The notes under the pieces are model-generated. The model was not told where the DNA came from. It did not search any database and saw only the letters and a list, made by a program, of their open reading frames with translations. Below are positions 41,047 through 52,324 of a stretch of DNA of 52,324 nt, piece after piece (positions within the stretch are counted from its first letter, which is position 1; each line of letters begins with the position of its first letter). The stretch lies in NCBI GenBank assembly GCA_964480475.1, contig CAYZPW010000009.1, positions 1 to 52,324 on the forward strand, written 5' to 3'. Made by a program: the position numbers and the translations under genes. The stretch comes from an uncultured bacterium. Its GTDB lineage: Bacteria; B130-G9.

Positions 41047-41177
41047 CCACGTGGGGCGGGCGTTCTAGCCTGCCGGTGTAGGGCGGGCTTTCCAGCCTGC
41101 CGGTGTAAGGCGGGCTTTCTAGCCTGCCGGTGTAAGGCGGGCTTTCTAGCCTGCCGGTGTAGGGTGGGCTTTCTAGC
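41047..41177. repeat. Non-coding tandem repeat of 27 bp in about 4.8 copies (unit TGCCGGTGTAAGGCGGGCTTTCTAGCC)
   Basis: Read directly from the sequence. The 12-mer TTCTAGCCTGCC also occurs at 106-117 next to the solo palindromic repeat. Confidence 0.8.
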
Positions 41178-41320
41178 CTGGCAAACATGTGCCTCGGGGA
41201 TTTGAGGAGCGCGCACAGTGATCGGTAGCTGGATTAGTCTCCGCCCGCTGGAAAACCGGAGGCGCCGGGCACCGAGATTAGACAGACCGGCGGCTTGAGC
41301 TGCCGCGAAGAACTACAGAT

Positions 41321-41405
41321 GCCGAGATGGTGGAACTTGGTAGACACGCTGCCTTGAGGGGGCAGTGGGCGAGAGCCTGTGGGGGTTCGAGTCCCCCTCT
41401 CGGCA
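41321..41405 (+). tRNA. tRNA-Leu (anticodon GAG) with a long variable arm
   Basis: GCCGAGA acceptor stem. The anticodon stem-loop reads CTGCC-TTGAGGG-GGCAG. A long extra arm is present. The T-arm is GGGGGTTCGAGTCCCCC. Confidence 0.85.
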
Positions 41406-41513
41406 TTTCCTTTATAGGCGGCTTTCCGGCGATCTCACCCCTCAACATCTGTCAAAATCCCCTCTCTTGTCTAATAGGCTTTTTTACGGTCTTTTCATTT
41501 CTTGTGTGCACAG

Positions 41514-41658
41514 TTATGGGCACAAATAGGGCACACTTTGGGCACGGCGTTCCGGAACGCGCCATTGGTGCCTTCTTTTTGCGGGTGCAAAATGCAATCT
41601 CCGGATCAGAAGCACTGCGGCTTGTATCACGACGATTATGGGCACAAATAGGGCACAC
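41514..41658. repeat. Two direct copies of TTATGGGCACAAATAGGGCACAC (41514-41536 and 41636-41658) spaced 122 bp apart, downstream of tRNA-Leu
   Basis: Read directly from the sequence. The unit contains the internal repeat GGGCACA. Confidence 0.4.
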
Positions 41659-42055: not shown

Positions 42056-45000
42056 TCATAGCCCTATCTCCATCGTGGTGGCATCAGGTTCCTTCCGAGC
42101 CTCTTCAGCACGGACTTGGTCATATACCTGCTTCAGAAGAGACCGCCTGACTTCGTCCTGAAAGTCCTTCTCATTCATGAACTTGGCGGTCATCTCCTCG
42201 TTCTGCTCCATGCGCTCGATGAAAAGCCCTTCGAGCGCCTTTGAGAAGACCCAGTTGAAGTTCTCCATCGTGTTTGCTAGAGCGGCCTGACGAAGTGCAG
42301 CATCGGCCAGCGCATCCTCTCGAATGGAGTCGAAGAACAATTGGTCTCCGAGCTTGAATTCGGTCCCGAATCTCTCGTTCAGTATGTCGATGAGCAGCGA
42401 AAGCTGGACGGTTTCATCGTGAGTCGTCCCGGTGCCGACCGAGGTGGGCCCGGAGACCTCGCCGCCCGTGCCCTTCTCCAGCCGGATGGAGCCCTCGCCG
42501 ATCTTCTGGAGCCGGTAGTATTTCAGGGCCACCTCGTCGTCGAAATCATAGGGAGGCCCGATGTCTCTCCTGGGTAACTTTGTGAGCAGGAGGCGTATAT
42601 AAGAGTAGAGCTTCTCGAGATCCGAATCCGTGAACGGGATCACCTGGGAAAGGAAGGCGTAGAGGTTACGATAAGCGACCAGGACCTTCCGAAATTCGTC
42701 GCGAGTTTCGGCATCGAGCTGGTTGTAACGGGCCACCGCCGGGTCTATGCAGGCATTCATTTTCGCGTGGTCGCCCTGAGTGTGGCGCCGCCTGGGCTTG
42801 TAGAATACTCTGCAGAACTCCTCGACCTCCGGCCTGTAATAAACCTGCTGAGCATCAAGGCGCGCCTGCAGTTCATAGAGCTGTTTCGCCTCGGCGCGCT
42901 CACCAACCAGGGTCTGCTCATAATATGGCTGAAAGGCGTCGAGGATCTCCTCGGGCTCGTTGACGAAATCAAGGATGAAGGTGTCCTCTTTGCCGGTGTG
43001 GGTCCTGTTGAGACGGCTGAGGGCCTGCACGGCCTGCAGCCCGGCGAGCCGTTTGTCCACATACATCGTGTGCAGCAGCGGCTGATCGAAGCCAGTCTGA
43101 TACTTCTCGGCGACGAGCAACACCTGATATTCATCCCTCGCGAACCGCGCGGGGAGTTCCTTCTCCCTAATCCCCTGATTCATCCTGACCTCGGTGTATT
43201 CAACATCGGGAATGTCAGGGTCGATGACCGTGCCGGAGAACGCCACGAGTGCCTTGATGCTGTAACCCCTCTTCGCAATGTACTTGTCGAAAGCCTGTTT
43301 GTACCGGACGGCGTGCAGCCGGCTTGCCGTCAGGACCATTGCTTTTGCCTTGCCGCCGATCCTATGACGTGTGAAGCGCTGGAAATGCTCAACCATGACC
43401 TCGGTTTTCTGCGCGATGTTATGCGGGTGAAGGCTCATAAAACGGGCAAGGGCGCGACCTGCCTTCTTCTTGTCCACATCCGGATCGTCCTCTATGGACT
43501 TCACGAGGCGATAGTAGGCTTTGTATGTAATGTAGTTCATTAGAACGTCGAGGATGAAGCCCTCCTCAATCGCCTGACGCATGCTGTAAAGATGAAATGG
43601 GCGGGGCTTGTCATCCGGTCCAAGCACCCCGAACACCTCGAGGGTCTTGTATTTGGGCGTAGCGGTGAAAGCGAAGAAGCTGATGTTGGGCTGTTTGCCC
43701 CGCTTGGCCATCGTGCGGAGGATCTCCTCCTCGTGGTCCGGCAGAACCTCATCAATCCCGCGTTCTTCGGCCTCCTCTCGCATCGCGGCTCCCGCAAGCA
43801 CGCCCTTCAGCTCCGTGGCCGATTGCCCGCCCTGGGAGCTGTGCGCCTCGTCAATGATCACCGCGTACTTGCGCTTCGGCAGGTCTCCTATTTTCTCCGT
43901 CACAAACGGGAACTTCTGGAGCGTCGTGATCACAATTGGTGAGGCCGAAGCGAGCGCGTCCGCAAGTTGGGTGGAGTTTATGTCTATCTTCTGAACGACG
44001 CCCTGTTTATGCTCGAACTGGTAGATCGTGTTCTGCAGCTGCTGATCGAGCACGAGCCGATCCGTCACGACGACAACGGAATCGAAGACCTTCTCATCCC
44101 TGTCGTCATAAAGGCTTGCCAGACGGTGCGCAAGCCACGCGATGGAGTTGGATTTGCCACTTCCCGCCGAGTGCTGCACCAGGTAGTTGGTGCCAGCTCC
44201 TTTGTCGTGCGCATCGCGCACAAGTTTGCGCACGCAGTCGAGTTGGTGATACCGTGGGAAGATCATCGTCTCCCTCTTGACCAACTTGCTTCCGAACCTT
44301 TTCTCCTCGACCTGGAGGTGGATGAAACGCGCGAGGATGTCGAGGAAGCTATCCCGGGCCAGAACCTCTTCCCAGAGATACGCTGTCTTGTGACCGCCAG
44401 GATTCGGGGGATTTCCCGCTCCAAATCCATCGCCACGGTTGAAAGGCAGGAAGAAGGCGCTCTTCCCGAGGCGAGTCGTCATGTGAACTTCATCAGGGTC
44501 CACGGCGAAATGAACGAGTGCCCGTCTCTTAAACTGAAAGATGAGGTCCCTGGAGTCACGGTCGTTGCGATACTGGCGGACTGCATCCTTCCAGGTCTGC
44601 CCCGTCATCGGGTTTTTCAGTTCGAGCGTCGCTACGGGTATGCCGTTCAAACTCAGAACAACATCGAGCGTGTTACCATGCTCTCTGCTGTATTTGACTT
44701 GCCGCGTCACGGTCAACCTGTTTGCGGCATATAGCTCCTGAGTATCCGGATTGAGCCCGCTGGCCGGCGCGAAGAAAGCGACGCGGAAGAGCTTGCCGAA
44801 ACACTTGAATCCGTGCCGCAGCACACTGAGGCACCCCTCGTGCTCCGAATTCAGCGCACGGCAGAGGTCTTCAATGAGCGTTACCCGCGCCTTGTCTTTG
44901 TGCAGGCTCTCAAGATAAGACCACTCCTCGGGCTGGGTCTTCCGGATGAAGGCGATTACATCATCGGGAAAGAGCGCCACGTCAGGATCAAAGGCACTTG

Positions 45001-45106
45001 GATCGCCCTTTTCATAGCCGCCGGTAAAGAGTAGGTGATCCTCAATCGCGGTCTCGAAACTGTATTCTGTATATCCCCAGGCATCAGGAAATCGCTTTCC
45101 ATTCAA
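42056..45106 (-). CDS. hsdR: Type I restriction enzyme R subunit (HsdR)
   Basis: 1016 aa. Contains an SF2 helicase/DEAD-like ATPase region and the general layout of an EcoR124-type R subunit. Confidence 0.85.
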   Translation of the reverse strand: MNGKRFPDAWGYTEYSFETAIEDHLLFTGGYEKGDPSAFDPDVALFPDDVIAFIRKTQPEEWSYLESLHKDKARVTLIEDLCRALNSEHEGCLSVLRHGFKCFGKLFRVAFFAPASGLNPDTQELYAANRLTVTRQVKYSREHGNTLDVVLSLNGIPVATLELKNPMTGQTWKDAVRQYRNDRDSRDLIFQFKRRALVHFAVDPDEVHMTTRLGKSAFFLPFNRGDGFGAGNPPNPGGHKTAYLWEEVLARDSFLDILARFIHLQVEEKRFGSKLVKRETMIFPRYHQLDCVRKLVRDAHDKGAGTNYLVQHSAGSGKSNSIAWLAHRLASLYDDRDEKVFDSVVVVTDRLVLDQQLQNTIYQFEHKQGVVQKIDINSTQLADALASASPIVITTLQKFPFVTEKIGDLPKRKYAVIIDEAHSSQGGQSATELKGVLAGAAMREEAEERGIDEVLPDHEEEILRTMAKRGKQPNISFFAFTATPKYKTLEVFGVLGPDDKPRPFHLYSMRQAIEEGFILDVLMNYITYKAYYRLVKSIEDDPDVDKKKAGRALARFMSLHPHNIAQKTEVMVEHFQRFTRHRIGGKAKAMVLTASRLHAVRYKQAFDKYIAKRGYSIKALVAFSGTVIDPDIPDVEYTEVRMNQGIREKELPARFARDEYQVLLVAEKYQTGFDQPLLHTMYVDKRLAGLQAVQALSRLNRTHTGKEDTFILDFVNEPEEILDAFQPYYEQTLVGERAEAKQLYELQARLDAQQVYYRPEVEEFCRVFYKPRRRHTQGDHAKMNACIDPAVARYNQLDAETRDEFRKVLVAYRNLYAFLSQVIPFTDSDLEKLYSYIRLLLTKLPRRDIGPPYDFDDEVALKYYRLQKIGEGSIRLEKGTGGEVSGPTSVGTGTTHDETVQLSLLIDILNERFGTEFKLGDQLFFDSIREDALADAALRQAALANTMENFNWVFSKALEGLFIERMEQNEEMTAKFMNEKDFQDEVRRSLLKQVYDQVRAEEARKEPDATTMEIGL

Positions 45107-45609
45107 ATCGGATATCCAACTCCCTCAGCATGGAGAAAGTATCGCTGGGGGGCAACATTGAACTGAGCGCACACATCGGGAAGTAGAATGCGGTTGCGGG
45201 ATTGCGGGCGAGGCTGCTCATTCGTCACAATAGTAGCGCGATTCGCCATAGCGTAGGCCACCAGCCAGCCATCCGCCTCGGTCGCGAATTTCGCCTTCGC
45301 CTGGTCGAAATACTGCGAGTTTCGCTGCGCCCAAAGCATGATCTCCTCATAGGCGGATATCACGCCTTCGTCAACCGTGGTGATGAAGAATCCTGCCGGC
45401 AGATTATTCTTGACCCATTGAAAAAGGTCTTCGGTCTGCCGTCCGGCAAGCAGTTCGGCTCTAACTCTGTCGATGCTGCAAACGTTTCGCGCTTCATGAT
45501 GGTGAATTAGGCTGTCCCAGAAGCCCGGACATAAAGAAAAGGCGTAGTAGCTGTTCTTCGCCGCAATAAACACGTCAGAGTCCAGGATATAAGGGCGATT
45601 TGCGCTCAT
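45103..45609 (-). CDS. DUF4411-like (PIN-like fold) protein, the partner of the HTH/ImmA gene
   Basis: 168 aa beginning MSANRPYILDSDVFIAAKN. Overlaps both neighbouring genes by 4 bp. Confidence 0.55.
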   Translation of the reverse strand: MSANRPYILDSDVFIAAKNSYYAFSLCPGFWDSLIHHHEARNVCSIDRVRAELLAGRQTEDLFQWVKNNLPAGFFITTVDEGVISAYEEIMLWAQRNSQYFDQAKAKFATEADGWLVAYAMANRATIVTNEQPRPQSRNRILLPDVCAQFNVAPQRYFLHAEGVGYPI

Positions 45610-46757
45610 GGCAGACCAAGCCCCAGACGGTAGGCGTATTCCTGAAAAGCGCCCCCACGCAGGCCGGTAAGGTCATAGGCTTCCTTGAAGCTCACGCGGC
45701 CGCTCTTGGCGGCAAAAATGACGTGCTTGGCGAACATCTCGCCCACGCGAGTATTCTGGTTGTTATAGAAGTTTCCCCCAGCGCCGGCGGAACTTCGCCT
45801 GCGCTCTCTCGCAATATACTCCTTGTAGAATGCGAAAAAAGCCTCCCGCTCGATTAGACGCAAATCCATCGCGCGACGTCCCGCGACGATTGGGCTCACT
45901 TTGAAATGTCGCCCGATGGCTTCAAAAGGCGACCGTTCGCGCCTGACTTGGGGCCAGAGAGTTTTCAGTTCTTGTGCCGGAACAAGGAATTCTGCCGCCG
46001 CCCGATCGCACCATGACTCGACCTTCTCTGATGCGCGAGGCGCCAGACCGACATCCGTCAAAGCGCTCTTCCCAAGCCAGATGTGCGCCAGTTCATGGGA
46101 TAGAGTGAACATCTGGGCCGATTTTGCGTCGGCACCGTTGACGAAAATGAGCGGAGCGTATTCATCACTGAGCGCGAAACCACGAAACTCCTCGACGTCC
46201 AGCTTACGACTCGTGTTGTTTCCAACAACGCCATTGATAATAGCCATAACATTCAGCTTTTCGATAACGCGGCGCAGGGCGCCGAGCGCCTCCTGCCAAG
46301 TCCGCACCTTGGCGGCCCACCGATCCTCCAGGCCCATTATGCGCCGCATTTCGCGTCCCACGGCCTCCGCCTCATCTGTCAAGCGGGCGCTTCCCACGAA
46401 TTCCAGCGGCTCCGCTTCGCATTCGATCAGCGTTTCCCGCAACCAGGCCTGACGGCGCTGCATTGTGTGGACGGTGTCCAGTAGATTAGGGCTCGGGCGT
46501 TCCATATATTGATTGCCGACCGTGCGCAGGTCGGGAATAGGAATTGACTCCTTCGGAGGCGCAGCAAGGAAGAGGTATCCAAACGGCGTATGGGTCGCCT
46601 TGGCGAACTTCTCGAGCTGTCTGAATGTCGGACGTTCCTCGCCACCAAGCCAGGCAGGCAACTTGCCGAGGTCCTTTTGCTGCGCCAGATCATGGACGCT
46701 TCGGCGGGCGCGATCACAGGCCCATAAAAGCAAATCGGGTTTGACGTCAACGCGCAT
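45606..46757 (-). CDS. XRE-type HTH fused to an ImmA/IrrE-family zinc metallopeptidase
   Basis: HEXXH motif within FTLSHELAHIWLG. The N-terminus has the pattern of an HTH domain. Confidence 0.7.
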   Translation of the reverse strand: MRVDVKPDLLLWACDRARRSVHDLAQQKDLGKLPAWLGGEERPTFRQLEKFAKATHTPFGYLFLAAPPKESIPIPDLRTVGNQYMERPSPNLLDTVHTMQRRQAWLRETLIECEAEPLEFVGSARLTDEAEAVGREMRRIMGLEDRWAAKVRTWQEALGALRRVIEKLNVMAIINGVVGNNTSRKLDVEEFRGFALSDEYAPLIFVNGADAKSAQMFTLSHELAHIWLGKSALTDVGLAPRASEKVESWCDRAAAEFLVPAQELKTLWPQVRRERSPFEAIGRHFKVSPIVAGRRAMDLRLIEREAFFAFYKEYIARERRRSSAGAGGNFYNNQNTRVGEMFAKHVIFAAKSGRVSFKEAYDLTGLRGGAFQEYAYRLGLGLP

Positions 46758-46807
46758 GATGCTGACCTTCTGGCATGTAGGTTGTCATCGGAGCTAACGC
46801 CTGTACT

Positions 46808-48052
46808 TTATTCATTGAATGCCTCCCGCACGTCTATCTTGCCGGTCACCGCAGCGGAGATCAGGGCCGTGCGGTATTCTTCTAGAAGTTGCACTGACCT
46901 TGCGATAATCCGCTCAATCTTTCGCTCAGAATACACATGATTCGAGACACATGCTTGTGCCTCCATTGGTGGTACAGGTATTGGCTCTTTTAGTAGAGTG
47001 CCTGCGTTGAGTGGGCGATTACGGCCTGCGGCTCCCCGTGAGTGTTGGTTTAGCAAAAAGTCCCCGGTCTTCGTGGTAAAGAAAGCAAACAGATATGCTG
47101 TCTCCATAAGGTTGGGTTTCCCGCGAATAATCGGGTAGCGGTGCGAAACAACACAACCCGCTTCTTCCTCGCTGGCGACGGCGACAGCGCCCTCCCAAGC
47201 GAATTGCCCACTTAGAATCAGGTCATCATTTTCTATCCAGAAGAAATTGGAGTCGCCAAGATCTGCGCCGATAGTCGGCTCCTTGGGGAAGATTCCGCGC
47301 CCTCGGTTATATAACCCAACTGGGATGTACACGTCATCGTCCCTTCGGGGAATAGGACGGAAGATCTGGTCCGCAACATGCCCTATCCGCATAGTCTGAG
47401 TTGATGCATCCCGGACAGCATCATGAATGAGAGCGGCCCGTTTTTCTCGAAGGAGCTCGATCAGCCGCTCCTTCTTCGCGATCAACACGTCAATCTTCGC
47501 CGTCTCTCGGTCGAGGAACGAGGCGATCGCGCGTTGTTCGGGGAGTGGGGCGACCCAGACAGGTACGCAGCTTAGCTGGCTCTGGTTGATTGCTGGATAA
47601 ACCACTCCTTGGGAACAAGCAACAATAGTCTCGATGACGGCGCTTGACTGAATCATCCTGAAAAGGAACTTAGGTAGAATAGCAGAGCGAGGTCGAAGCA
47701 CAGCAAAACCGGTCGAGACGATCAAGTTATTCGCTGGATCCGGCAGATGTGCAACTGCCCTTAAGTACGTCCGCACAGTGGAGACAATTGTATCCCCATA
47801 TCTGACAATTCGGCGAGCACGGCTCGGAGCGCTTTGGAAGTCAATAACCTGGGGTTGGGCGATTCTCGAATTCGAATCCACGGTGGCTATGTCCAAGTAT
47901 TGCATCTCATATCGTGGTGCAGTGTCTTCGGATAGCGCTTCATTATTGATCTCACAGATGTCTTTTAGTCGCTTAACCTCCCAATGTCTTGGTATCTCGC
48001 CCAGCCAGTCGATGCCGGAGTCGTTGTATTCGGGATAGGGCGGCCAGGTCAT
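46808..48052 (-). CDS. hsdS: Type I restriction-modification specificity subunit (HsdS) with two target-recognition domains
   Basis: Typical organisation of two target-recognition domains plus conserved central and C-terminal helices. Confidence 0.85.
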   Translation of the reverse strand: MTWPPYPEYNDSGIDWLGEIPRHWEVKRLKDICEINNEALSEDTAPRYEMQYLDIATVDSNSRIAQPQVIDFQSAPSRARRIVRYGDTIVSTVRTYLRAVAHLPDPANNLIVSTGFAVLRPRSAILPKFLFRMIQSSAVIETIVACSQGVVYPAINQSQLSCVPVWVAPLPEQRAIASFLDRETAKIDVLIAKKERLIELLREKRAALIHDAVRDASTQTMRIGHVADQIFRPIPRRDDDVYIPVGLYNRGRGIFPKEPTIGADLGDSNFFWIENDDLILSGQFAWEGAVAVASEEEAGCVVSHRYPIIRGKPNLMETAYLFAFFTTKTGDFLLNQHSRGAAGRNRPLNAGTLLKEPIPVPPMEAQACVSNHVYSERKIERIIARSVQLLEEYRTALISAAVTGKIDVREAFNE

Positions 48053-49122
48053 TCGGTCTTTCTCCCGACCGATTTCGAGCCGGTCTTCGGCTTGTTTCTT
48101 GCGGATTTTAGCTGCTTAGCGGAGTTTCGAAGATCATCGAAGTACCGCTTTTCAGCGTCGTCTTCCGCCGCGAGCCGCCGGCGTTCCGCAAAAGCCTCAT
48201 ATTGCTGATCAGCCCATTTCTGAGCGGTCTCATGGCTGGTTGAGCCGGAGCCACCGAGCACGGGGAGTTCCGTATCCCTCAAGAATTTGTCAAGAAACAC
48301 CTCCCAATCGCGCATGCGGATATCCTGCCGCCGCTGGGCGCGGAACTCGGCCTGGTCCAGGAACATGACCGTAATCCGATTGAGCGTGTCGATTTCCTTC
48401 GCGTCCAAGTAGTTTTTCGCTGTGATGATGTCTCGCTTGAGCACACGACTGCCCTTCCACGAGGTCAGGCCCATGTTGGCCTTGTGCGCGTCGGCGCGAC
48501 GCCGAACGATCTCCGCCGCGGTCATGCCCGTTGCCGCGTAGTGAATCTTGTTCTGCGTGGTGGCGAAAAAGATCTGTGTCTCCTGGTCGCCCTCCCGGTA
48601 GTCGATAGCGAGTGCAAAAATCTCCCGTATGCGTTGGTAAACCCGCGCCTCGCTTGCGCGAATCTCGCGGATCCGTGCCAGCAACTCGTCAAAATAATCA
48701 GCTAGCTGGTTATGACCCTTGAGGCGTTCGTCATCTAGCGTAAAGCCTTTGACGAGGTATTCGCGGAGGCGTTCGGTAGCCCACTGGCGAAACATTACAC
48801 CCCGTGGCGACCGCACCCGGTAGCCAACGGCCAGAATCATGTCAAGATTGTAGTATTTGACCGGACGCTGGACCTGCCGAGAGCCTTCCTGTCGAACCAT
48901 TAAGTATTCCTTAATAGTTGCCTCGGCGCGCAGCTCGTTTTCTTTCAGTATGTTACGAATGTGGATGTTGATGTTGGGGACAGAAGTTTCGTAAAGATCA
49001 GCCATCATTGCCTGTGTCAGCCAGGCCGTCTCGTCCTCGAGTCTGACAAGAATCCGATTACAGCCGTCATCGGTCTGGTAAACGACTACTTGGCTGCCAG
49101 GTTCATTCTCTTTCTCGGTCAT
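48049..49122 (-). CDS. RhuM-family protein, a common passenger of hsdM-hsdS loci
   Basis: The block KYYNLDMILAVGYRVRSPRGVMFRQWATERLREYLVKGF is characteristic of the family. Confidence 0.7.
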   Translation of the reverse strand: MTEKENEPGSQVVVYQTDDGCNRILVRLEDETAWLTQAMMADLYETSVPNINIHIRNILKENELRAEATIKEYLMVRQEGSRQVQRPVKYYNLDMILAVGYRVRSPRGVMFRQWATERLREYLVKGFTLDDERLKGHNQLADYFDELLARIREIRASEARVYQRIREIFALAIDYREGDQETQIFFATTQNKIHYAATGMTAAEIVRRRADAHKANMGLTSWKGSRVLKRDIITAKNYLDAKEIDTLNRITVMFLDQAEFRAQRRQDIRMRDWEVFLDKFLRDTELPVLGGSGSTSHETAQKWADQQYEAFAERRRLAAEDDAEKRYFDDLRNSAKQLKSARNKPKTGSKSVGRKTE

Positions 49123-51131
49123 TCGGTCATCTCCCCGAGCATATCGGCGATCTCCTTCTCGACCTGGCTGATATCGGCCTCAATCGCGTCAAGCGGCCTG
49201 GGCGGCTTGTATTTGTAGAAGTAGCGGTTGAAGTTAATCTCGTAGCCGACCTTCGTCTTCGATTCGTCGATCCAGGCGTCGGGCACGTGCGGCAGGACTT
49301 CCCGCTTCACGTATTCTTCGACGTCCTCCTTAAGCGGTACGTTCTCGTGGTCGCGGATCTCCGGGTCCGGCTCAGGATTGCCCTTGGAGTCGAGGCAGAC
49401 GTCGGCAGTCTCGTCGCGCTCCGCAAGCGCCATCAGGACCGCCTTAAATAGCGAAGCTGGAGCCTTGATACCGGCCGCTCTGAATGCTTGCTTAAGGAGA
49501 CTGCTGAACTCATCCCGGTTCTTGATTGAGCCTCTATCCGAGAGCGTCGAGAGAGCTTCGAGGATCGCCTGCTGCTGGAGTCTTCCCGCCTCAATCTCCA
49601 TCTCGATCAAGGCCTCGTCCCTCCGCTTCTTGCTCGTGGCTAGCGCGACGAAGGCTTTGGCCTCCTTCACACTGGCGAGGCGCTCCTCAGTAACCGCGAA
49701 GTTGAGCCTCAGCGGGCGTTCAACCGTTACTCGCCGGTAGCCGAAATGCTCGTTTTCAAAAATGCGCACGAACTCCCCCTCTCTGAAGTCACCGTAGAGG
49801 CGGGTTATCTCATCCCGCTGCCCCTCGCAGATCTCGTTGCGCTTGTTGCCCAGGCTCTTTCGCATCTTCTTGAAGAAGGAAGTCGCGTCAACGAGTTGTG
49901 TTTTGCCCCGGCGCTCGGTGGGCTTGCGGTTGGTGACAATCCAGAGGTAAGTGCTGATCCCCGTGTTGTAGAACATCTGGTCTGGAAGGGCGACGATCGC
50001 CTCCAGCCAGTCGTTCTCGATGATCCACTTCCGGATCTCGCTCTCGCCCGAGCCGGCGGAGCCGGTGAAGAGCGGAGAGCCATTGAAGACAATCGCCAGG
50101 CGTGTCCCTCCGTCGGAAGGGGCCTTCATCTTGCTGATCATGTGTTGAAGGAACAGAAGAGAGCCGTCGTTGATGCGAGGCAGTCCCGCCCCGAAGCGAC
50201 CGCCGAAGCCCTGCTCCTCGTGTTCCTTCTTGACGATGTTCTGCTGCGCCTCCCACTTCACGCCGAAGGGTGGATTGGCGAGCATGTAATCATATCTGCC
50301 AGCCGCAAAGTAGTCCTCCGTGAAGCTGTCACCAAGCCGGATGTGCTCGATGTCCTGTCCTTTGATCATCATGTCCGAGCCGCAGATAGCGTACGCCTGC
50401 TCGTTGTAATCCTGGCCAAATGCCTCGAGGCGCGCGTCGGGATTCAGCTCTCGCACAAACTCTTCGGAAACCGAGAGCATGCCGCCCGTCCCACAGGCCG
50501 GGTCAAAGAGGGTCTTGATGATGCCCCTGGTGGTGAGGATGTCGCTGTCGGGCAGGAATATGAGATTGACCATGAGACGAATGACCTCGCGTGGGGTGAA
50601 GTGATCTCCAGCCTCCTCGTTGCTCGCCTCATTGAAGCGGCGGATGAGCTCCTCGAAGATGTAGCCCATCTCGATGTTGGAGACGGTGTCGGGGTGCAGG
50701 TCGATCTCGCAGAACTTGGAGACGAGGAGAAAGAGGCGATTGGCCTTCTCCAGTTTGCCGATGTGCTCCTCGAAGCCGAAGTTGTCGATGATGTCGCGGG
50801 CGCGGCTTGAAAAGCCCTTGATGTAATGCGTCAGGTTGGCGGCGATGTTGTCTGGCTCTCCCTTGAGCTTCTGGAACGTGAAGCGACTCGTGTTGTGAAA
50901 CGCGTGGCCAGACACCTTGTTGAGGACTGGCTCGACGTTCTTGAACATGCCGCCCTCAAGGCTCTTGAGTCTTGCGAGGACCGCGTCCTTCGTGGGCAAC
51001 AGGACCCAGTCAAGGCGACGCAGGACGGTCATCGGTAGCATGACGTCTTTGTACTGGTTCGGGCGATACGGGCCGCGAAGCAAGTCCGCCACCGACCAGA
51101 TGAAACTGACTTTCTCTCCGAAGTTATTCAT
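49119..51131 (-). CDS. hsdM: Type I restriction-modification N6-adenine DNA methyltransferase (HsdM)
   Basis: Catalytic motif NPPFG within LANPPFGVKWE. An N-terminal HsdM-N region is present. Length 670 aa. Confidence 0.9.
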   Translation of the reverse strand: MNNFGEKVSFIWSVADLLRGPYRPNQYKDVMLPMTVLRRLDWVLLPTKDAVLARLKSLEGGMFKNVEPVLNKVSGHAFHNTSRFTFQKLKGEPDNIAANLTHYIKGFSSRARDIIDNFGFEEHIGKLEKANRLFLLVSKFCEIDLHPDTVSNIEMGYIFEELIRRFNEASNEEAGDHFTPREVIRLMVNLIFLPDSDILTTRGIIKTLFDPACGTGGMLSVSEEFVRELNPDARLEAFGQDYNEQAYAICGSDMMIKGQDIEHIRLGDSFTEDYFAAGRYDYMLANPPFGVKWEAQQNIVKKEHEEQGFGGRFGAGLPRINDGSLLFLQHMISKMKAPSDGGTRLAIVFNGSPLFTGSAGSGESEIRKWIIENDWLEAIVALPDQMFYNTGISTYLWIVTNRKPTERRGKTQLVDATSFFKKMRKSLGNKRNEICEGQRDEITRLYGDFREGEFVRIFENEHFGYRRVTVERPLRLNFAVTEERLASVKEAKAFVALATSKKRRDEALIEMEIEAGRLQQQAILEALSTLSDRGSIKNRDEFSSLLKQAFRAAGIKAPASLFKAVLMALAERDETADVCLDSKGNPEPDPEIRDHENVPLKEDVEEYVKREVLPHVPDAWIDESKTKVGYEINFNRYFYKYKPPRPLDAIEADISQVEKEIADMLGEMTE

Positions 51132-51905
51132 GAGGGTTCCTGCTCATAACATTATCGCGCAGCTCCTCGAGGCTGTCCCCGTAGCAGAGCGTGTTCTTGG
51201 AAGGTCGATCGTATCTCGCACTGCTCTATTCGCGCGCCTGCTCCTTCCCAGGACCCTCGAGAAGTAGCCCTGTTCATAGCGCCTTAACTCCCCGATTGGT
51301 TACGAGGACATCATCTCCACGTTCAGGAGAAGATACATGAGGTCATTGGTGTGGTAAAGAGGAATGGTGAGCCTAGTATGGACCGAGACGAGAAAATATG
51401 TGGGTTGCGGGGCGCGTAATCGAGTATGCCTTGGGGGATGTTTGATGGCTCTATTGCTGGTGGTGGGCGGGCGCGGTGCTATTGATGCGGCAGACGTTCT
51501 CCGACTGCCCCTCGGGCCGGGAGGACTCACGGTCTGTGCTGGCATAGGGGGCAGCCGACCATTGCTCTATTGCCACTCGGCTGATGCCAGCACCCCTGCA
51601 AGAAACGCGGGCTGAAATCTGATAAATCAGGTTCCCGACTCACCGCAGCAAGAGCGTGGGGGAAACTATTGAATTAATGATGGCCAGACGTATGGTCTGC
51701 GTCCATGCTGCCGGTCAATTCGGCGGATTGCATAGGTTGCACGGTGTGTATCCCCTGCGTTTAGCCTGAGCCAGGCTGATCGTTATCTTGCTTTTGCTTG
51801 AGTCCTGTCAGGTCGCTCGATGGTGTTTTTTGCCGGTTCTCGTGATGTAAACCGTCGATGATGGGTGGCGTGGTGTGTGGTGGGCCGGGGCTGTAGTGTA
51901 GTGTG

Positions 51906-52324
51906 TTATGCGGCTTCGGGGAGAGTCTTTGCTTCGCGGATGATGGCCTTCAGGACCTTCTCGATGGTGTTCAGGAGTTTGACCACCTGGGTCGCTGGGT
52001 TCTTGGTGTGTTGTAGGAGGTGGTCATGGACTTTACGGGCTGATTCAAGTTTGACGCCGAAGAGGGAGCCGATGGCAACTGCGACTATGTCAGCTATGAC
52101 TTCGCGCTGGTTCTTGCTGCGCATTCTGTGGTCGGTTGGGAGGGCGTGCTTGTGTTTTGCGTGCGCTAGTTCGTGCCAGAAGACCACCTCGTCAGGGCTG
52201 GCGAGGCCTATTCGCTTGCCGAGCATGCCCTGCTGGTAGTAGCCGATGATGCGATTCTGATATGGGACATTCTCGACCTCTACTCCGAGGCGTTCTGCGA
52301 CATCGAGAAGCCTGTGTTTGGGCA
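51906..52324 (-). CDS. ArdC-like antirestriction/zincin-like protein (partial; the 5' end lies beyond the window)
   Basis: The frame remains open to the window edge. It reads ...VVFWHELAHAKHKH...REVIADIVAVAIGSLFGV...VHDHLLQ, which resembles the ArdC C-terminal HEXXH metalloprotease region. Confidence 0.45.
   Translation of the reverse strand, partial: PKHRLLDVAERLGVEVENVPYQNRIIGYYQQGMLGKRIGLASPDEVVFWHELAHAKHKHALPTDHRMRSKNQREVIADIVAVAIGSLFGVKLESARKVHDHLLQHTKNPATQVVKLLNTIEKVLKAIIREAKTLPEAA

Follow-up and report, generated by a model that had tools for sequence, protein, structure and literature searches.

The closest described system to the gene pair studied here is VapBC52 of M. tuberculosis, whose structures are available as PDB 9vzy and 9vzz (Singh et al., NAR 2026, PMC13273310). 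Entry 9vzy is a complex of an 'HTH cro/C1-type domain-containing protein' (HTH, helix-turn-helix) with a 'DUF4411 family protein', and the two are VapBC52. VapC52 is a PIN tRNase with the residues D6, E48, D99 and E117, and its C-terminal alpha-8 helix makes an unusual open dimer. VapB52 has three parts: at the N-terminus an HTH-like domain of five helices, to which the toxin is bound, then an IrrE-type HEXXH peptidase, and at the C-terminus a helical plug that covers the active site. The peptidase is activated by single-stranded DNA (ssDNA) and then cuts its own protein at a conserved FR motif. VapBC52 forms a 1:2 complex and protects M. smegmatis against phage D29, and the N-terminal domain of VapB52 superposes on C.Csp231I, a controller protein of restriction-modification (R-M) (PMC13273310). 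Most genes that lie embedded in loci for Type I R-M, BREX and DISARM serve defence (Payne 2024, bioRxiv 10.1101/2024.01.29.577857), and TgvAB in the VPI-2 island of V. cholerae are defence genes embedded in a Type I R-M locus (PMC11411939). Here we analysed a stretch of 52,324 nucleotides from an uncultured bacterium (GTDB lineage Bacteria; B130-G9; assembly GCA_964480475.1, contig CAYZPW010000009.1, positions 1 to 52,324), called the window below, in which a homologous pair, an HTH-ImmA/IrrE peptidase gene followed by a DUF4411 gene, lies between hsdS and hsdR of a Type I R-M operon that also carries rhuM. We consider it likely, with a probability of about 65%, that the locus is one co-oriented and largely translationally coupled operon stacking three defence functions, namely Type I R-M, RhuM and a VapBC52-type pair.

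Six open reading frames (ORFs), all on the minus strand, fill 42056–51131 in the order hsdM, rhuM, hsdS, HTH-ImmA peptidase gene, DUF4411 gene and hsdR. All six are long and gave strong family matches in profile searches, so that they are not chance ORFs. As read from the DNA, stop and start overlap as ATGA at hsdM/rhuM, rhuM/hsdS and ImmA/DUF4411 and as TTGA at DUF4411/hsdR, while hsdS and the ImmA gene are separated by a 50-bp spacer (46758–46807, minus strand). A preliminary description of this DNA had claimed six co-oriented genes, a 50-bp gap after hsdS and 4-bp overlaps at the other four junctions, and had read the locus as a Type I R-M operon into which two passenger modules are embedded. 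Genes and gap were found at the claimed positions, the matches in Pfam, PADLOC and NCBIfam support the calls of all six genes, and the domain calls together with the loci of relatives agree with the single-operon layout and with the reading of two passengers. Three of the four overlaps stood as ATGA, and the fourth, TTGA, is literally present but is not the junction of the family, as set out below.

The six genes are presumably co-transcribed. A sigma-70-like promoter match (GGGACA-17-GATAAT; 51151–51179, minus strand) lies 20 nt upstream of the hsdM ATG; it is weak, and since such sites are rarer in this region than expected from shuffling, it is only a candidate. The scan for promoters and terminators on the coding strand of the operon interior gave nothing convincing. 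The 50-bp spacer was searched for a promoter-like site and for an inverted repeat or operator, and none was found. In several relatives, the end of the hsdS ORF and the first position matched by ImmA lie at most about 15 nt apart.

The first gene of the pair (45606–46757, minus strand) encodes an HTH-ImmA/IrrE (M78) peptidase of 383 aa, the predicted antitoxin and sensor. It matched Pfam Peptidase_M78 (E = 2.7e-12), VapB52 (PDB 9vzy_A, E = 1.4e-18, residues 24–349) and IrrE (PDB 3dte, E = 0.055). The PADLOC matches were capP (3e-10) and 14 RmrA models (best 3e-9), the latter over part of the protein only. The Zn site and its third ligand, a Glu, are represented by H221-E-x-x-H225 and E247, which do not vary among 26 homologs and align with H216, H220 and E245 of VapB52. 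P73-I-P-D-L-R78, the beginning of the motif PIPDLRT, is also invariant in the 26 homologs, and its L77-R78 is aligned with the FR motif of VapB52. The N-terminal 60 residues were modelled as five helices with a predicted local distance difference test score (pLDDT) of 77–88. A Pfam HTH search with the protein of the window gave no match even at E ≤ 1, while HTH_3 was matched by 14 of the 26 homologs (best 1.2e-6) and HTH_31 by 11. The fusion of an XRE-type HTH to an ImmA/IrrE peptidase, as it had been described, was thus confirmed for the peptidase, and the HTH holds at the family level only, from the 14 homologs and the homology to the N-terminus of VapB52. PHROGs contains both the ImmA and the DUF4411 family, which means that phage or prophage genomes carry the pair as well, and it labels the family of the HTH-peptidase 'transcriptional regulator'.

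The second gene (45103–45609, minus strand) was assembled as an ORF of 168 aa and matched Pfam DUF4411 (PF14367, E = 3.6e-42) and VapC52 (PDB 9vzy_D, E = 4.7e-5). Its D10, E52, D113 and E131 align with D6, E48, D99 and E117 of VapC52; in the family, D10 is nearly invariant and the other three are invariant. Nearly all homologs are 174 aa long, and the copy in the window has an unrelated tail, residues 155–168 being out-of-frame sequence. DNA alignment with relatives and three-frame translation located a +1 insertion in a CCCCCC run at 45147–45152 (minus strand). One extra base is present at this C6 run in the window and in the sister contig L079, compared with the relatives L080, L081 and L001, and the frameshift replaces the last 20 residues of the window's protein. 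The conserved C-terminal tail, SDTFSMLRELDIRFEWKAIS followed by the stop, lies out of frame at 45084–45146 (minus strand, frame 0 of the translation). It matches the family consensus and is a near-perfect match to intact relatives. One of these is the close relative P0241 (174 aa), which falls into the same protein cluster at 90% identity and ends in ...RDTFSMLMDLEVRFEWKAIS. L079 is a JGI contig from a separate assembly and is 99.96% identical to the window over 2393 bp; with the same C6 run in it, the frameshift is reproducible. As assembled, the toxin therefore lacks the conserved tail that intact family members have. By extrapolation of the alignment, the lost segment is probably the equivalent of the alpha-8 dimer helix of VapC52. 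A run of the CCC-C type could in principle allow slippage of tRNA-Pro by +1 and restore a 174-aa protein, and the relatives are in frame at this position. Programmed +1 ribosomal frameshifting was considered unlikely, because the C6 run occurs in this lineage only and the close relatives are in frame.

A second difference of one nucleotide was found at the start of hsdR. In the relatives the DUF4411/hsdR junction is TGATG, and their HsdR begins with M-P-G-x-x-T-E-x-x-F-E-T-A. The window keeps ATG-CCT-GGG at 45084–45076, and the canonical start region (45074–45084, minus strand) reads ATG-CCT-GGG-G and then, at 45074, one A in place of the AA of relatives; through this deletion of 1 nt, the ATG is shifted by 1 nt from the frame of the hsdR body. 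L079, L080 and L081 read GG(G/A)GAATAT and give M-P-G-E-Y-T-E-Y-S-F-E-T-A-I-E in frame, with the canonical ATG (45084–45082) as start, whereas the window reads GGGGATAT and has TTG at 45106 as the only in-frame start. The 4-bp overlap of DUF4411 and hsdR is therefore a by-product of the two 1-nt indels. The deletion was seen in the window only and is either a real variant or an assembly error; with the canonical start out of frame, restriction may be weakened or inactive in this copy.

To place the pair in context, one genome per species was scanned, which gave 73 related loci in phyla including Planctomycetota, Acidobacteriota, Nitrospirota, Desulfobacterota, Myxococcota, Chloroflexota, Gemmatimonadota and others. 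Both proteins of the pair are 55–81% identical to those of the window in these relatives. ImmA lies directly upstream of DUF4411 in 68 of the 71 loci with enough flanking DNA, and the two genes overlap by ATGA in 50 of 57 testable loci. The operon hsdM...hsdS-ImmA-DUF4411-hsdR of the same Type I family was found in 11 of the 41 loci with long flanks. Among the 62 copies with a toxin of intact length, hsdR follows directly 3' in 18 and begins at the contig end in 6 more, and 2 keep just a decayed 5' remnant of hsdR. Counted as an hsdR of the same family, or its start, directly 3' of the pair, the figure is 25 of 62 intact copies, or about 40%. The fuller order hsdM-rhuM-hsdS-ImmA-DUF4411-...-hsdR was seen again in two loci, L003 and L015, and L013 shows it up to the contig edge. 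The identity of ImmA or DUF4411 to the window correlates with that of HsdR and HsdM (r about 0.87–0.91, by a crude measure), which, on these sequence comparisons, indicates a common history of the pair and the R-M core, with exchange of the specificity domains.

The pair also occurs in other settings. It was found between the Type III genes Mod and Res in L010, inside a different Type I family in L064, and in L021 between an Eco57I-type methylase and a large T5orf172-domain protein, which carries helicase-like motifs for which Pfam made no call. In about half of the loci the pair is free-standing or not beside R-M. Neighbouring slots of the same operon family hold other passengers, namely Abi_2, a PrrC/RloC-like AAA_13 ATPase (L039), an OLD/Gabija-like AAA ATPase, two DUF488 with DuOB, and several more genes that match no family. 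The DUF488 case is L003 (10507–12558), where the first gene after DUF4411 is an ORF of 108 aa that repeats the N-terminus of HsdR (MPGRHTEHAFETAIQHHL...); two DUF488 genes and DuOB come next, and the full hsdR stands last. This layout suggests that cassettes are exchanged by recombination at the conserved 5' end of hsdR. In L020 and L024, a decayed 5' remnant of hsdR with in-frame stops lies directly past the DUF4411 stop of a free-standing pair, so that at least some free-standing copies descend from embedded ones.

Damaged copies were seen elsewhere in the family. DUF4411 is truncated or interrupted in L056, L057, L065, L070 and L073, where the match to the upstream ImmA gene is near full length, and in P0133 a remnant of DUF4411 is joined to an ImmA protein; toxin loss that recurs in this way, as it seems to, is in keeping with selection against a toxin that is active. 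The closest relative of the window's pair, with 80–81% identity, is in L001/L006 (8853–13351), from a metagenome-assembled genome of Desulfosudis oleivorans. This locus has hsdR in about five ORF fragments and lacks hsdM and hsdS, with an insertion sequence (DDE_Tnp_1) and dynamin-like GTPase genes upstream, and is a degraded version of the operon.

The R-M core has the three subunits of a Type I system. HsdM (49119–51131, minus strand, 670 aa), the methyltransferase subunit, matched Pfam N6_Mtase (7e-54) and HsdM_N (2e-23) and PADLOC MTase_I (2.8e-293). Its translation shows DPACGTGG and NPPF (motifs I and IV), and it is 72–76% identical to HsdM of related operons. The specificity subunit HsdS (46808–48052, minus strand, 414 aa) has two stretches of Pfam Methylase_S and two target-recognition domains, with PADLOC Specificity_I models matching residues 5–213 and 165–411. 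It is only 25–35% identical to HsdS of related operons, as expected with swapped recognition domains. HsdR (42056–45106, minus strand, 1016 aa from the TTG at 45106), the restriction and translocase subunit, has an N-terminal PD-(D/E)xK nuclease domain and a superfamily 2 (SF2) translocase. It matched Pfam HSDR_N (3.7e-17), SWI2_SNF2 (9.5e-26), ResIII and T1R_D3-like, PADLOC REase_I, and TIGR00348 (4e-61, below the curated cut-off of that model); GSGKS, DEAH and D...ELK are present in the translation. It is 57–78% identical to the HsdR encoded directly 3' of DUF4411 in at least 18 loci.

The gene rhuM (48049–49122, minus strand, 357 aa) occupies the slot between hsdM and hsdS and is ATGA-coupled at both ends. 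The match to the family Virulence_RhuM is full-length (PF13310, E = 2.8e-107, 358 bits against a cut-off of 33.7), and PADLOC PDC-S05 was matched with 1e-142 over residues 1–342. A search of solved structures in PDB gave no significant match for RhuM, and NCBIfam has no model for RhuM or DUF4411. The gene is in the same slot in L003, L013 and L015, and a rhuM fragment lies upstream of ImmA on the short contig L014. One representative of RhuM/PDC-S05 lowered the plating of T7 and T5 by a factor of about 1000 and that of T4 by a factor of about 10 (2026, PMC12881386). An identical 12-mer, GACCGAATGACC, stands at 49117–49128 and 48047–48058 (minus strand) and spans both ATGA overlaps that bracket the 1.07-kb rhuM. 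It was ruled out as a general footprint of cassette insertion, since the 3' ends of rhuM in L003, L013, L014 and L015 differ; the 3' end of hsdM is conserved irrespective of the next gene. GACCGAATGACC is a local repeat.

A working scheme for the stacked operon can be proposed from these homologies. HsdM and HsdS, as HsdM2-HsdS, would methylate the host's own sites, and the complex with HsdR would translocate along unmethylated DNA and cut it. RhuM, placed between hsdM and hsdS, would act as a single-gene defence protein. DUF4411 would be a PIN-fold RNase, most likely a tRNase, which the ImmA protein binds and holds inactive. By homology to VapB52 and CapP, the HEXXH peptidase would be activated by ssDNA that arises as phage replication intermediates or from the breakdown of DNA. 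It would then cleave the antitoxin at PIPDLR|T, the junction of the HTH and peptidase domains, and the freed toxin would shut down translation.

Several points weigh against this scheme or limit it. The AlphaFold2 model of the ImmA protein has low confidence (pLDDT 57), as does that of the closest intact DUF4411 homolog (pLDDT 45); the models are poor because the alignments held only homologs of more than 66% identity. The proposed PIN fold and domain architecture are thus drawn from sequence homology alone. The identity to VapBC52 is low and the match is of the kind that hidden Markov models (HMM) detect. In addition, the Cys-switch C229 of VapB52 aligns with Thr234 (family consensus S-A-L-T-D), the putative cleavage motif is LR here and FR in VapB52, and the C-terminal plug of about 59 residues in VapB52 is represented by about 35 residues past the aligned region (pLDDT 51–56), which do not align with it. 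DUF4411 matched no PADLOC model (PADLOC-DB v2.0.0). Finally, the frameshifted toxin gene may leave the ImmA/DUF4411 pair non-functional in this copy.

That last point is the core of the most serious rival, a decaying locus, to which we give somewhat less than even odds. Both indels would be real, the activity of the toxin and most translation of HsdR would be lost, and an M2S methyltransferase, RhuM and an orphan antitoxin would be left. The presence of the C6 frameshift in two separately assembled contigs, the copies elsewhere with disrupted toxin and intact ImmA (the five loci and P0133 named above), and the fragmented closest relative L001/L006 all favour it. The near-perfect state of the out-of-frame tail, the intact invariant toxin residues upstream of the frameshift and the intact antitoxin point the other way, and mean that the frameshift is very recent or a sequencing error. 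Against loss of HsdR, the deletion at its start is missing from L079 and an in-frame TTG is present at 45106. Decay is compatible with the layered-defence reading, and the choice hinges on whether the indels are real. Another rival holds the pair to be a selfish addiction module that chiefly stabilises the R-M island by post-segregational killing and does not sense phage. A toxin-antitoxin (TA) architecture with the antitoxin first and an ATGA overlap, an operon that sits beside a tRNA gene and moves between phyla, and a pair that is free-standing in about half of its loci would all suit such a module. It nevertheless appears unlikely to us, because the strong bias toward locations inside R-M loci fits defence better, and, to our knowledge, Type I R-M systems are not strongly addictive. 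The homolog VapBC52 moreover defends against phage, and what releases its antitoxin is a specific signal, ssDNA, and not simple instability (PMC13273310).

Three further proposals tie the pair to the restriction enzyme itself. The pair might not be an independent passenger of the stacked operon but a backup wired to restriction, leading to abortive infection when restriction fails or is overwhelmed; ssDNA or DNA fragments, made as the translocase-nuclease acts on phage DNA or as phage replication escapes it, would then trigger the self-cut of the peptidase and so free the tRNase. This builds on where the pair stands, just ahead of the R gene in Type III and in both Type I families, often with TGATG at the junction, and ahead of the large T5orf172 protein in the Eco57I-methylase locus, and on its co-divergence with HsdR and HsdM, and we hold it to be improbable on present grounds. 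The same placement, always directly upstream of the R gene in these Type I and Type III loci, has led to the proposal that the HTH-peptidase is a controller of restriction, either C-protein-like or an SOS- or ssDNA-responsive switch for the downstream hsdR or res, with DUF4411 secondary. The position upstream of the large T5orf172 protein in the Eco57I-methylase locus, the superposition of the VapB52 N-terminal domain on C.Csp231I and the PHROGs label are in line with a controller. This is quite unlikely, however, since the search upstream of the pair gave no operator-like inverted repeat, an R gene is missing from the neighbourhood of many copies, and the conservation of the four catalytic residues of DUF4411 in the family means that the toxin is under selection. 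The pair might also be a PrrC-like guard, which would watch over the Type I enzyme and respond once that enzyme is inhibited by an anti-restriction protein of a phage. It has the same embedded position as prrC in EcoprrI, the RNase effector of its homolog targets tRNA, and the PrrC/RloC-like AAA_13 protein of L039 stands in a neighbouring slot. Such a guard is nonetheless very improbable: the pair is not homologous to PrrC, in which an anticodon nuclease is fused to an ABC ATPase, about half of its copies are not beside R-M, and the homologous pair works without R-M in M. smegmatis (PMC13273310).

The DNA around the operon gave a few additional observations. A tRNA-Leu(GAG) gene (41320–41406, plus strand; ARAGORN) lies 650 bp past the hsdR stop, after tpiA-secG, and is a possible insertion site of the island. 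A second copy of the tRNA-Leu 3' end, sought across the window to delimit the island, was not found. Within the 650 bp that separate tRNA-Leu from the hsdR stop, an exact 23-nt direct repeat, TTATGGGCACAAATAGGGCACAC, occurs at 41514–41536 and 41636–41658, with a spacing of 122 nt, and could represent recombinase arm-type sites or a remnant of an island end. Five tandem 27-nt units resembling GGCGGGCTTTCTAGCCTGCCGGTGTAA fill 41055–41189 between the secG stop and tRNA-Leu. On the other side, the contig ends 1.2 kb beyond hsdM. A small ORF with a HELAH motif (51906–52226, minus strand) is located there upstream of the operon, and its frame may reach the contig end; it gave only a sub-threshold match to Peptidase_M78 (E = 0.11).

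Both the parts and the arrangement are of known kinds, and the layout described for this DNA is real and was correctly interpreted. The locus of the window is probably a standard layered defence island with a damaged toxin gene. New here are the link to VapBC52, the cross-phylum association, given in numbers, between the pair and the slot that immediately precedes restriction genes, and the damage to the toxin gene and possibly to the hsdR start. The family is also a well-documented case of Type I R-M operons as carriers with defined slots (M|S, S|pair and pair|R). This VapBC52-type branch is highly conserved across phyla, with about half of its members inside R-M loci and, in the resolved R-M contexts, directly upstream of the restriction subunit. 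The placement raises the question whether an abortive-infection module is triggered by, or coordinated with, restriction activity.

The preliminary description had called the pair a toxin or abortive-infection-type module, which is supported by the VapBC52 homology, by Matelska et al. 2017 and by Payne 2024. Its view of such passengers as poorly characterised is outdated, since structures, mechanism and phage defence have been reported for VapBC52 (PMC13273310) and the RhuM/PDC-S05 representative defends (PMC12881386). Matelska et al. 2017 placed the PIN-like DUF4411.1 downstream of a fused HTH-DUF955 gene and predicted a TA-like 'three-component' system from gene neighbourhoods (PMC5499597); this is the same pair in the same order, proposed computationally and without the embedding between hsdS and hsdR. 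In RosmerTA (RmrT/RmrA; Millman 2022; Ernits 2023, PMC10440598), an HTH/M78 peptidase is the antitoxin of diverse toxins, and PIN-like partners of the ImmA node were noted by Ernits et al. (PMC10440598). The window's pair resembles it as a two-gene defence TA system with an HTH and M78 Zn-peptidase antitoxin that RmrA models match. It differs in that these matches are weak, in that DUF4411 is not a catalogued RmrT, and in that the antitoxin comes first, whereas 58% of pairs at the NetFlax ImmA/Rosmer node are toxin-first (PMC10440598). With only weak peptidase matches in PADLOC-DB v2.0.0, the pair is seemingly not among its catalogued candidates.

CapH/CapP, ImmR/ImmA and DdrO/IrrE use the same peptidase family (PF06114) and a cleavage of an HTH protein that responds to a DNA signal. 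In those systems a separate repressor is cleaved and transcription is turned on, whereas in VapB52, and by homology in the window, HTH and peptidase are fused and cleavage would release a toxin. As an embedded arrangement, the operon is comparable with PrrC/EcoprrI, TgvAB and the PDC/HEC candidates, in which co-oriented defence genes also lie between hsd genes, with different protein families; RhuM, as PDC-S05, is itself one of the 'guilt-by-embedding' PDC/HEC candidates of Payne 2024. The likeness to PrrC is positional only, no PrrC/RloC-type ABC-ATPase with an anticodon nuclease domain having been found in the six operon proteins. The closest agreement is with VapBC52, which has a DUF4411 toxin with the same four acidic residues and an antitoxin with an M78 HEXXH and Glu as third ligand; an HTH-like N-terminal domain, and an x-R motif at its junction with the peptidase domain, are probably shared as well. 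The pair of the window differs from it in being embedded in a Type I R-M operon and 55–81% conserved across many phyla, and in having the C-terminal toxin helix frameshifted away. The window's pair is a distant branch of the VapBC52 kind and probably works in the same mode, with different details of auto-inhibition and of the plug.

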